From an uncultured Eubacterium sp. (GTDB lineage Bacteria; Bacillota; Clostridia; Peptostreptococcales; Anaerovoracaceae), in contig CALCFD010000051.1 in assembly GCA_937900695.1 (NCBI GenBank), positions 1,953-65,952 on the forward strand: DNA of 64,000 bases, read 5' to 3'. The notes beneath the pieces are model-generated. The model was given only the letters and a program-made list of their open reading frames with translations. It ran no database searches and was not told the DNA's origin. Below, in pieces: positions 13,510-14,148 of the stretch. The position numbers were made by a program, and so were the translations under genes. How positions within the stretch are numbered: the first letter of the stretch is position 1; every line of letters begins with the position of its first letter.

Positions 13510-14148
13510 ATGGCATACATCTATTAGATTACAAATGATATAAATGGAAAAATCTATATAGGAAAAACTGAATTTTCTATTGAAAAGCGCTTTAAAGAGC
13601 ATTGTTATGATGCGTTTCGAGATAGAAATGAAAAGCGGCCTTTATATGCTGCTATGCGGAAGTATGGAATAGAACATTTCCATATAGAACTTCTTGAAGA
13701 AACTGATGATCCAAACGAAAGAGAAGCTTATTGGATTGAAAAAAAGCGTTCTTTTAAAGATGGATATAATGCCACTATTGGTGGAGATGGAAAAAGATAC
13801 ATTGATTATGATTTAGTAATTAATACATATAAGAAATTATTAAATCAAAATGAAACTGCAAAAATCTTGAATATTTCTCCTGATAGTGTTCATAATATAT
13901 TAAAAGAAAATAATATCGAGATAAAATCTGGAGCAGAAATTAGCAAAGAAAAAAATTCAATGTCTGTTTTTATGATAGATAAGAAAGATAACTCTATAAT
14001 TAGAGGTTTTCCATCAATGGCAGACGCTGCTCGATACTTAATAGATAATCAATTAACTAATTGTAAAATGACTACAATTCGTTATCATATTTCAGAAGTA
14101 TGTAATGGAAAAAGAAAGACCGCTGCTGGGTACAAATGGTCATTTTAG
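13510..14148 (+). CDS. GIY-YIG homing endonuclease (free-standing between tRNA genes), contains in-frame TAG
   Basis: N-terminus MAYIY-Q-ITNDINGKIYIGKT..KRFKEH..YWIEKK, with TAG at codon 6 (about 13525-13527). Frame continues into ORF 13654..14148. Confidence 0.7.

Follow-up and report, generated by a model that had tools for sequence, protein, structure and literature searches.

Mobile-type homing endonuclease genes in a TAG-recoded gut phage, two of them within tRNA insertions that resemble ribozyme-less introns

Free-standing endonuclease genes of the Seg and Mob type in phage T4, especially SegB of its tRNA cluster, and those in the tRNA region of T5 are classical examples of phage-borne homing endonucleases. 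We analysed a stretch of 64,000 nt (positions 1,953 to 65,952 of contig CALCFD010000051.1, assembly GCA_937900695.1, from an uncultured Eubacterium sp.), which is called the window throughout, and in which nine homing-endonuclease-type genes have invaded a tRNA island and a replication module. As in T4 and T5, GIY-YIG and other endonuclease genes lie between genes and in the tRNA cluster, are patchily distributed and are associated with co-conversion of flanks. Unlike the T4 and T5 genes, however, cassettes in the window sit exactly at the 3′ ends of tRNAs or of transfer-messenger RNA (tmRNA), the genes contain in-frame TAG codons for which a phage suppressor tRNA is needed, and two of the genes lie inside tRNA genes. 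A high endonuclease load in a phage tRNA cluster is familiar in itself. The nine mobile-type genes take about 6 kb, or 9.5% of the window, and the endonuclease load of T4 is comparable; a preliminary description of this DNA, made from the sequence alone, had called the load extreme, which overstates it.

For the two genes inside tRNAs, the nearest precedent is I-Ssp6803I of Synechocystis PCC 6803, encoded by an open reading frame (ORF) of 150 aa within a 655-nt group I intron of tRNA-fMet, in which about 200 nt are ribozyme. The protein family of gene 25966 of the window (genes are named by their start coordinates) is homologous to it (PF11645), and the insertion again lies in the anticodon loop next to the anticodon. 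However, the phage insertions are of 442-489 nt with an ORF of roughly 140 aa, have no group I signature, close with a rod that pairs with the anticodon, and are distributed over about ten tRNA species in phages rather than cyanobacteria. In Lak megaphages, 'enigmatic' tRNA introns have been described, including one in a tRNA-Thr that was predicted to be tRNA-like (Devoto et al., bioRxiv 10.1101/356790). These too are anticodon-loop insertions of phage tRNAs, and their splicing mechanism is likewise a puzzle; the portions of that account considered here mention no endonuclease ORF, covariation, site rule, wider survey or mechanism, whereas the window elements bear homing endonuclease genes and can be assigned to two defined structural classes (class 1, with PD-(D/E)xK genes, and class 2, with GIY-YIG genes and tRNA-like ends). 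With the protein-spliced tRNA introns of archaea and eukaryotes, the phage elements share the position next to the anticodon, the pairing with the anticodon and the lack of a ribozyme; they differ in the site, which is 36/37 and not 37/38, and in a continuous helix without 3-nt bulges, and no homologue of the splicing endonuclease was identified. As in the Rnl1/Pnkp tRNA repair of T4, the window encodes an RNA ligase and a kinase-like enzyme. According to a 2014 review, all phage introns known at that time were in protein-coding genes (PMC3984707). Our literature search found no account of ribozyme-less, endonuclease-bearing tRNA introns in phages, and such introns appear to be undescribed so far.

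Recoded stop codons of phages are concentrated in lysis, structural and endonuclease genes, and in-frame stops have been proposed to block endonuclease synthesis until late infection (Borges et al., bioRxiv 10.1101/2021.08.26.457843). That case concerned TGA recoding in Agate phages and one family of intron (group I) endonucleases, whereas in the window TAG recoding touches every endonuclease-type gene, of four folds, and in addition a GIY-YIG core gene that is predicted to be membrane-anchored. On the whole, we consider it likely, with a probability of roughly 70%, that the window comes from a recoded phage carrying nine mobile endonuclease genes, that TAG codons delay their expression, and that two of them reside in ribozyme-less tRNA introns removed by proteins.

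The window is a piece of a roughly 148-kb gut phage. Metagenome contigs of about 148 kb encode a protein identical to one of its products, IMG/VR is rich in related contigs of about 100-150 kb, and phage phAss-1 has tRNA sequence in common with the window (PMC10607447). All long ORFs are on the + strand, and with TAG taken as a sense codon, ORFs of 100 aa or more fill 77% of the window instead of 57%. Among 70 curated ORFs, 64 end in TAA, 5 in TGA and 1 in TAG; the sole TAG terminator is that of ORF 13510, and TAA follows directly after it. In alignments of homologues, TAG sites face mostly Gln, next Lys or Glu and next TAG, a profile which resembles that of CAA and CAG sites, and one TAG of ORF 25966 is the invariant Gln position Q51 of the PDDEXK_5 family alignment. 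The window holds 28 tRNAs at 9512-28029 (ARAGORN), a tmRNA at 17500-17830 (69.9 bits, Rfam) and the following suppressor:

26916..26990, + strand, suppressor tRNA(CUA) that decodes TAG (ARAGORN, Rfam)

Inspection of its sequence reveals a G73 discriminator and an unpaired 1:72 position, which are tRNA-Gln-like; overall similarity to phage tRNA-Gln genes was uninformative. Thus, the gain of coding sequence with TAG as sense, the alignment of TAG with Gln, the tRNA(CUA) and its tRNA-Gln-like features all agree that the phage is recoded from TAG to Gln (code 15). The end given to gene 13510 in the preliminary description, 14148, presumes a TAG stop; the recoded ORF ends at the TAA of 14149-14151.

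All endonuclease ORFs of the window were translated with TAG as Gln for a Pfam scan. There are ten endonuclease-like loci, namely the core gene 55337, which is taken up below, and nine mobile-type homing endonuclease genes of four nuclease folds:

4341..5261, + strand, Zn-ribbon/Vsr/DUF2726-like gene, copy 1, paralogue of 28104 and 39403 (weak Pfam matches only)
13510..14151, + strand, free-standing GIY-YIG gene, I-TevI-like (Pfam E=5e-11; PHROG 'homing endonuclease' families)
16455..17216, + strand, GIY-YIG ORF in a putative tRNA-Arg intron (Pfam E=4.5e-9; 4 in-frame TAG)
17917..18315, + strand, LAGLIDADG single-motif gene (PF14528 and PF00961, E about 1e-5)
25966..26394, + strand, PD-(D/E)xK ORF, I-Ssp6803I-like (PF11645 PDDEXK_5, E=2.6e-26; 2 TAG codons)
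28104..28841, + strand, Zn-ribbon/Vsr-like gene, copy 2, just after tRNA-Cys (DUF2726 just under the Pfam cutoff)
35686..36472, + strand, Zn-ribbon/Vsr-like gene, copy 3 in genome order, with one frameshift near 36005-36015 (two-frame tblastn)
39403..40113, + strand, Zn-ribbon/Vsr-like gene, copy 4 in genome order, just after the RNA ligase gene (PHROG 374, 559, 9084, 7140)
57639..58301, + strand, free-standing GIY-YIG gene between 57206 and 58326 (Pfam E=3e-12; two NUMOD1; 9 TAG)

The profile searches proposed in the preliminary description (PF01541, PF00961/PF14528) find their domains above cutoff. The four GIY-YIG ORFs of the window score 34.5-47.1 bits against PF01541 (cutoff 22.6), and the LAGLIDADG gene scores 26.1 bits against PF14528 (cutoff 22.5) and 25.9 bits against PF00961 (cutoff 23.1). 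ORF 25966 reaches 92.7 bits against PF11645, for which the cutoff is 26.1, and a profile built from its protein and six relatives matches PDB 2OST (E=2e-13), which we take to be I-Ssp6803I, the database label being only "putative endonuclease". Linked DNA-binding modules comprise the two NUMOD1 of 57639, a weak, sub-threshold NUMOD1 match (Pfam) in 13510, and, at the C-terminus of the 16455 protein, a putative Zn-ribbon (CxxC...CxxC, by eye) with sub-threshold helix-turn-helix (HTH) matches; 55337 has none. The Zn-ribbon family is built of CxCxCG-type repeats followed by a nuclease motif RFDF...IEFDGxQH...RIPY. Its copy 39403, which was the copy scanned, matches PHROG families annotated as HNH, homing or intron-encoded endonucleases, and phmmer of the family against PDB structures gave no meaningful match. 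The other 50 ORFs matched 37 Pfam families, and the top 25 of these include no strong further endonuclease family.

This inventory changes some counts of the preliminary description and leaves others as they were. Of its five GIY-YIG genes, the domains at 13510, 16455, 57639 and the C-terminus of 55337 stand; the supposed fifth gene at 55933 duplicates 55337, because the ATG at 55931 is in frame with that gene, and the number is four. Its total of about 12 endonuclease genes shrinks to ten loci, even with all four Zn-ribbon copies (one of them frameshifted) included. Pfam and Rfam agree with its LAGLIDADG gene at 17917 after the tmRNA, Pfam PDDEXK_5 agrees with its PD-(D/E)xK gene at 25966, and the intron mode of ARAGORN agrees that 16455 and 25966 lie inside tRNA insertions.

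Mobility was examined by comparison with related phages, as the preliminary description had proposed, in a sample of 107 loci around two conserved genes and 4 loci around the RNA ligase gene (L235-L238); labels such as L001 or L056 denote these related phage loci or contigs compared with window genes. Insertion polymorphism was found at every site that could be examined, that is, for eight of the nine mobile-type genes, while for the ninth, 4341, no relative covers the site. Each testable gene is either present in one and absent from another close relative, or has a paralogue in the same place. At the site of 57639, a gap of 4 bp separates the homologues of 57206 and 58326 in the five closest relatives (L001-L005), and orthologues with 58-64% identity stand at the same site in the more distant L022, L035 and L037. 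Gene 16455 is missing in L060 though its flanks are 97% and 94.5% identical in nucleotides, and the 1048-bp segment of the window corresponds there to a 131-bp segment with an intact tRNA-Arg(UCU). Similarly, 25966 is missing in L056-L059, which hold an intact tRNA-Ser(UGA) in its place (the orthologue in L056 is at 16695-16782). For the Zn-ribbon family, 28104 is missing in L057-L060 and has a 33% paralogue at the same site in L056; 35686 is missing in L235, where a 261-nt gap is found, and has a paralogue at the same site in L236; and 39403 has a 38% paralogue at the same site in L236, with no homologue detected in L237 or L238.

Free-standing cassettes are placed exactly at tRNA or tmRNA 3′ ends. 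The 13510 cassette (about 13432-14236) begins directly after the discriminator base of tRNA-Thr(UGU), so that the encoded CCA is replaced, and it is missing from its site in L056-L060, which have 93 bp there versus a 920-bp segment in the window. A homologue with 52% identity is placed after tRNA-Glu in L057 and L073, and this cassette likewise begins after the discriminator base and replaces the encoded CCA. Both cassettes have a hairpin in common in the 5′ untranslated region (UTR), and the differences in its stem look compensatory by eye. The LAGLIDADG cassette (17831-18342) begins right after the tmRNA 3′ end; the gene is found in L056, L060, L063 and L071 and is missing in L057-L059 and L073. 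The nucleotide identity of this cassette to L056/L060 is 99-100%, whereas that of the flanks is 86-97%, which is the pattern that would be expected of recent endonuclease-driven gene conversion.

Two observations belong beside these sites. The tRNA-Thr(UGU) next to the 13510 cassette (13350-13431) is 82 nt long, with a 12-nt variable region and without encoded CCA, and at its position relatives have a 75-76-nt tRNA-Thr of quite different sequence. In L001, L004 and L013 (about 10955-11830), an extra segment of ~0.8 kb, not found in the window, lies between the homologues of 58326 and 59342 and is probably another endonuclease site.

The tenth locus differs from the other nine:

55337..56245, + strand, core gene with C-terminal GIY-YIG domain (Pfam, residues 210-290, E=2.5e-8; 15 TAG)

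By eye, its N-terminus consists of a hydrophobic, probable transmembrane helix and then a charged, probably coiled-coil region. In 45 of 55 related loci the gene keeps its place between the homologues of 55016 and 56245, with identity down to about 31%. Its full-length family of about 303 aa has 2,980 database matches at E<=1e-5, and the best 120 of these 2,980 are nearly all of ~303 aa. The preliminary description had counted 55337 as a mobile endonuclease and had named conservation as a core gene as the finding that would speak against this; such conservation is what we find, and with synteny in 45/55 loci its presence is not sporadic, so that a homing endonuclease was rejected here. 55337 is best read as a domesticated GIY-YIG core gene that is not mobile. 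Nearby, a ThyX gene (PF02511, 56526-57152) is at this position in only 7/55 related loci and is variable cargo between two conserved genes.

For the analysis of TAG usage, the ten endonuclease-like loci were scored as 11 ORFs. They hold 58/97 in-frame TAGs of the window in 14% of the codons (odds ratio 9.6, Fisher p=3e-26), and the share of Gln codons written TAG is 51% in these genes versus 9% elsewhere. The TAG richness of endonuclease genes noted in the preliminary description is thereby upheld, and it extends to relatives, in which endonuclease homologues have 0.2-1.25 TAG per 100 codons. The most TAG-rich gene of the window is 55337, with its 15 TAGs; TAG occurs in 34/45 of its orthologues, at 2.66 per 100 codons, and in its immediate neighbours at 0-0.02. 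Remaining TAG clusters are found in lysis genes (45980-48248), some tail-fibre-like genes and a few left-end genes, and neighbouring early or replication genes have no TAG.

With such a distribution, translation of the nucleases would await the phage's own tRNA(CUA), and nuclease production would be delayed. That suppressor dependence restricts endonuclease expression, as was suggested in the preliminary description, is reasonable and has a precedent in Borges et al., while the timing itself is what we infer here. Its companion suggestion, long residence of these genes in a recoded lineage, is plausible; however, it cannot be told apart from selection for TAG gating. Against regulation, TAG enrichment could be a passive by-product of relaxed selection and AT-biased drift, in which weakly selected selfish genes of an AT-rich, suppressor-bearing phage gain CAA/CAG to TAG changes and essential early genes stay TAG-free. 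This agrees with the base composition of the endonuclease-like genes, which are the most AT-rich in the window (GC 0.28-0.32), with the turnover of TAG positions between homologues, and with the few TAGs in the PDDEXK_5 homologues of relatives (2/9). It agrees poorly with 55337, which is TAG-rich in 34/45 orthologues despite purifying selection and TAG-free neighbours, and with the lysis genes at 45980-48248, which share the bias as reported for late genes of recoded phages. Because the conserved nuclease gene 55337, which is under purifying selection, is the most recoded of all, we favour regulation over pure drift and regard the passive origin as rather unlikely. This phage group offers a clean test of stop-codon recoding as a timer of dangerous proteins.

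Both interrupted tRNA genes were found by the intron mode of ARAGORN, and their junctions were set from intron-less relatives:

16326..17282, + strand, tRNA-Arg(UCU) with a putative class-2 intron; exons 16326-16360 and 17241-17282, intron 16361-17240 (880 nt)
25903..26457, + strand, tRNA-Ser(UGA) with a putative class-1, rod-closed intron; exons 25903-25939 and 26407-26457, intron 25940-26406 (467 nt)

The borders of the tRNA-Ser intron carry a one-base ambiguity. Joined in silico, the exons give a canonical tRNA-Arg(UCU) with the loop CTTC|TAA and a canonical tRNA-Ser(UGA) with the loop CTTGA|AA, the predicted joined exon junctions of the two tRNAs being GCAACAGCCTTC|TAAGCTGTAAT and GCGGTCTTGA|AAACCGCC. 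A near-identical tRNA-Arg(UCU) without intron is present in L239 (4517-4593) and differs by few changes, including a compensatory T-stem pair. In the window, the interrupted copies are the only copies of both isoacceptors. What the preliminary description overlooked is that both insertions are without a ribozyme signature and represent two structured, intron-like classes that are widespread. No Intron_gpI (RF00028) match was obtained in either insertion at E<=10 in searches of 0.6-1 kb, and no group I intron was found at the gathering threshold, nor at E<=0.1 over 20 kb. At the gathering threshold the control also missed the tRNA-Leu introns of relatives, and the search was repeated in E-value mode, in which the positive control, the tRNA-Leu(UAA) intron of L083, scored 47.4 bits (E=4e-11). 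With Rfam negative and this control positive, group I introns were rejected for the two window tRNAs. Outside the ORF, the Ser intron has 38 nt (26 nt 5′ and 12 nt 3′) and the Arg intron about 118 nt.

Other interrupted tRNA genes were seen beside these. Introns of tRNA-Leu(UAA) occur in relatives at 17124-17328 of L083, 8546-9421 of L056, 6644-7520 of L065 and 19704-20166 of L096; that of L083 is of 218 nt, and 789-nt versions in relatives are presumably ORF-bearing. Group I introns in phage tRNA genes appear unreported so far. Within the window, a tRNA-like gene at 20314-20431 has a conserved 40-50-nt anticodon-loop insertion, a third and ORF-less kind, which recurs in L056-L074 at a distance of some 500 bp upstream of the homologue of 20896; its ARAGORN labels vary between Lys-CTT, Ser-GCT and Pro-AGG.

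Class 1 is common, occurring on more than 70 independent contigs by itself. Among the best 80 IMG/VR homologues of the 25966 protein, 63 lie in 442-489-nt anticodon-loop insertions under default ARAGORN settings, and after inspection at least 74/80 lie in tRNAs, nearly all of which have a recognisable cloverleaf. The cultured Enterococcus phage EFP01 has a class-1 insertion in a tRNA-Asn(GUU), at about 105242-105777 of KY549443, that its GenBank record leaves unannotated, and about 29 sister Schiekvirus genomes have an intact tRNA-Asn(GUU) instead. Comparison of EFP01 with EFDG1, which has no intron, places the junction between nt 36 and 37. When applied to 44 non-redundant introns, the 36|37 junction yields standard anticodons (Asn, Thr, Met, Lys, Ser, Asp, Ile, Arg, Val); position 33 is U and position 37 is a purine in 44/44, and long variable arms fall to Ser. 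The ARAGORN labels Phe-AAA, Tyr-ATA, His-ATG and a Gly-GCC with long variable arm were discarded as junction artefacts, as the EFP01/EFDG1 pair and the variable arms back 36|37.

In 43/44 class-1 introns, with about ten different anticodons among them, the final three nucleotides are the complement of the anticodon; since this repeat is inverted and not direct, an origin by target-site duplication was rejected. From the 36|37 junction and this complement, a duplex in the pre-tRNA would run unbroken through both junctions, one on each strand and 3 bp apart. In the Ser intron of the window the termini pair as TTGAGTA/TACTCAA. Cognate ends of class 1 fold at a mean of -20.7 kcal/mol versus -8.4 for non-cognate ends (n=50 non-redundant, p=5e-29). 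RNAalifold of 12 diverse members gives a continuous 11-bp helix through both junctions, which starts after the 32:38 mismatch and is followed by a conserved 1x2 internal loop (A opposite CA) and then a further helix; 14/18 pairs of the consensus show compensatory changes. The rod is predicted to continue the anticodon stem for roughly 20-25 bp. Neither a bulge-helix-bulge nor single-stranded splice sites are present in this consensus of 12 rods, and several class-1 junctions are without the U(-1) and the terminal G that group I introns typically have.

EFP01, together with its intron-less sister phages, makes the question of splicing directly testable. The missing annotation of its interrupted tRNA, in the one GenBank record examined, suggests that tRNA counts of phages may be underestimated. 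The tRNA cluster of EFP01 also has a ROOL RNA (264.8 bits; 2430-3016 of L241, which is about 106240-106826 of EFP01), located about 460 nt downstream of the interrupted tRNA-Asn. In L139 and L152, two different interrupted tRNAs lie downstream of the PDDEXK_5 ORFs with an unusual T-arm, GGTCGAGATATCGTAA(T/C)TCTCC, because of which both escape ARAGORN; it is either a conserved variant or a small T-loop insertion.

In class 2, the ends of the insertion resemble a tRNA. The Arg intron starts with GTTGGGT, a 5′ acceptor-like strand, and ends with ATAAG-TTCAAAT-CTTAT-ATTCAAC-A-CCA, which comprises a T-arm-like hairpin, the complementary strand, a discriminator-like base and CCA. Eight more instances lie in other tRNAs, those for Glu, Gly and Asp as judged by eye from the anticodon loops. 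In the 9 instances together, 99% of cells in the 12 pairs of the terminal helix and hairpin are paired and 7/12 pairs are compensatory, values matched by 0/500 shuffles; moreover, G-U pairs indicate a structure at the RNA level on the sense strand. In all instances the 5′ junction falls on the initial nucleotide of the acceptor-like helix; past the helix, another 4 nt (NCCA, or GCAA) or 2 nt follow before the 3′ junction, and insertion sites within the anticodon loop range from 34/35 to 36/37. A search of IMG/VR with the exact pattern of the 3′ end yielded only 4 loci, and a protein-based search was more productive; no cultured example was found in the two best GenBank phage matches (phiSHEF13 and EF1). 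L105 has a PDDEXK_5 domain in fusion with the Zn-ribbon/HTH module that the 16455 GIY-YIG protein also carries, which shows domain shuffling between the two intron classes.

We infer that the insertions are true introns, because endonuclease genes inside genes otherwise always ride self-removing elements, because most interrupted tRNAs keep a recognisable cloverleaf, and because a stem that merely stabilises mRNA need not re-evolve complementarity to about ten anticodons. The introns would leave the pre-tRNA by protein action and not by self-splicing. In class 2, the tRNA-like intron may invite RNase P at its 5′ end and an RNase Z-type or other 3′-processing endonuclease at its 3′ end, and such cuts would give 3′-OH and 5′-phosphate exon ends. 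These ends could be joined by an ATP-dependent RNA ligase such as that encoded in the window:

38063..39343, + strand, phage RNA ligase (PF09414; kept in L235-L238)

As a sealing enzyme for tRNA exons, this ligase is a candidate. Near it are an AAA_33 kinase-like gene (40961-41494) and calcineurin-like phosphoesterases at 40199 and 41491. In class 1, a nuclease that recognises duplexes would cut 3 bp apart at the helix of anticodon and intron, and the excision might be performed by the PD-(D/E)xK enzyme of the intron itself or by a duplex nuclease of the host. I-Ssp6803I cuts DNA on either side of the anticodon with 3-nt 3′ overhangs, and the class-1 RNA duplex would mimic the DNA homing site. 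In addition, TAG codons in the intron ORFs would hold ribosomes off the splice structure until suppressor tRNA builds up. That the two classes are both mobile, endonuclease-carrying and protein-spliced, and that they form the first endonuclease-ligase pathway of tRNA splicing in the bacterial world, is put forward tentatively and with considerable reserve.

As to the surroundings of the ligase, the region 38063-42168 resembles an RNA repair module interrupted by the endonuclease gene 39403. Its order is similar in L236-L238, and the short L235 covers the ligase alone.

Several points weigh against removal of the insertions as introns. Splicing of both classes is deduced from nucleotide sequence. 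The class-1 rod is without a bulge-helix-bulge motif, and we know of no bacterial enzyme that cuts RNA duplexes with a 3-nt stagger; RNase III was rejected as the class-1 nuclease, as its overhangs are of 2 nt. In class 2, a simple RNase Z cut would predict something other than a 3′ junction 2 or 4 nt past the helix. For RNA ligase and kinase, the repair of tRNA after cleavage by anticodon nucleases of the host is an established alternative function. Moreover, the PDDEXK_5 genes of L141 and L157 adjoin decayed tRNA halves, and those of L109, L162, L176 and L186 are free-standing; some insertions, therefore, clearly keep no working tRNA. Finally, EFP01 alone has the insertion among 31 Schiekvirus records, which would also fit a recent, tolerated disruption.

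One alternative is that the insertions are not introns at all. The endonuclease genes would merely disrupt tRNA-Arg(UCU) and tRNA-Ser(UGA), which the host could replace, and the paired or tRNA-like ends would serve the endonuclease transcript, with tRNA body and stem acting as a natural 'tRNA scaffold', so that RNase P and 3′ processing free a stable, structured mRNA from a highly transcribed tRNA array. As would be expected from this, tRNA halves next to some homologues are decayed or missing (L141, L157), a few copies are free-standing, and the insertion is present in only 1/31 cultured Schiekvirus records; elsewhere in this phage, endonuclease genes lie between tRNAs, where no splicing is needed, and no ribozyme was detected. 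However, at least 74/80 homologues are in a tRNA anticodon loop, nearly all with a cloverleaf, 63 of them passing ARAGORN defaults, and the interrupted tRNAs are the window's only copies of both isoacceptors. A stabilising stem need not take in exon bases, yet 43/44 introns complement the anticodon, and, to our knowledge, all known endonuclease genes inside genes ride self-removing elements. We therefore think mere disruption possible but doubtful. A hidden self-splicing ribozyme, either a reduced group I intron with a core overlapping the ORF or a new small class within the termini, is very improbable: the prototype I-Ssp6803I gene does sit in a 655-nt group I intron of tRNA-fMet, related phages have a group I intron in tRNA-Leu(UAA), a twister-like motif occurs in the same tRNA island, and the conserved internal loop and tRNA-like ends speak for RNA under selection, but the ORF leaves only some 38 nt of the intron in class 1 and some 118 nt in class 2, compared with about 200 nt of ribozyme in Synechocystis, Intron_gpI gave no match at E<=10 with the control at E=4e-11, and several class-1 junctions are without U(-1) and terminal G.

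If the insertions are spliced, bacteria or their viruses hold an undescribed, protein-based route of tRNA splicing; if they are not, selfish genes have found a new way to exploit tRNA processing.

Two further elements of the window were recorded. A twister-P1 ribozyme-like match at 12809-12866 lies 5 nt upstream of tRNA-Ser(GCU); it scores 49.5 bits (E=1.6e-8), under the gathering score of 67.2, and could be a self-cleaving processing element of the tRNA array. The region 28878-33215 has two neighbouring genes. One encodes a DUF2828/DUF7788 protein, and the other a protein of 809 aa with major-vault-protein shoulder and repeat domains and an SPFH domain, which is 40-45% identical to proteins of 460-735-kb 'huge phages' (LR756500/1/3).

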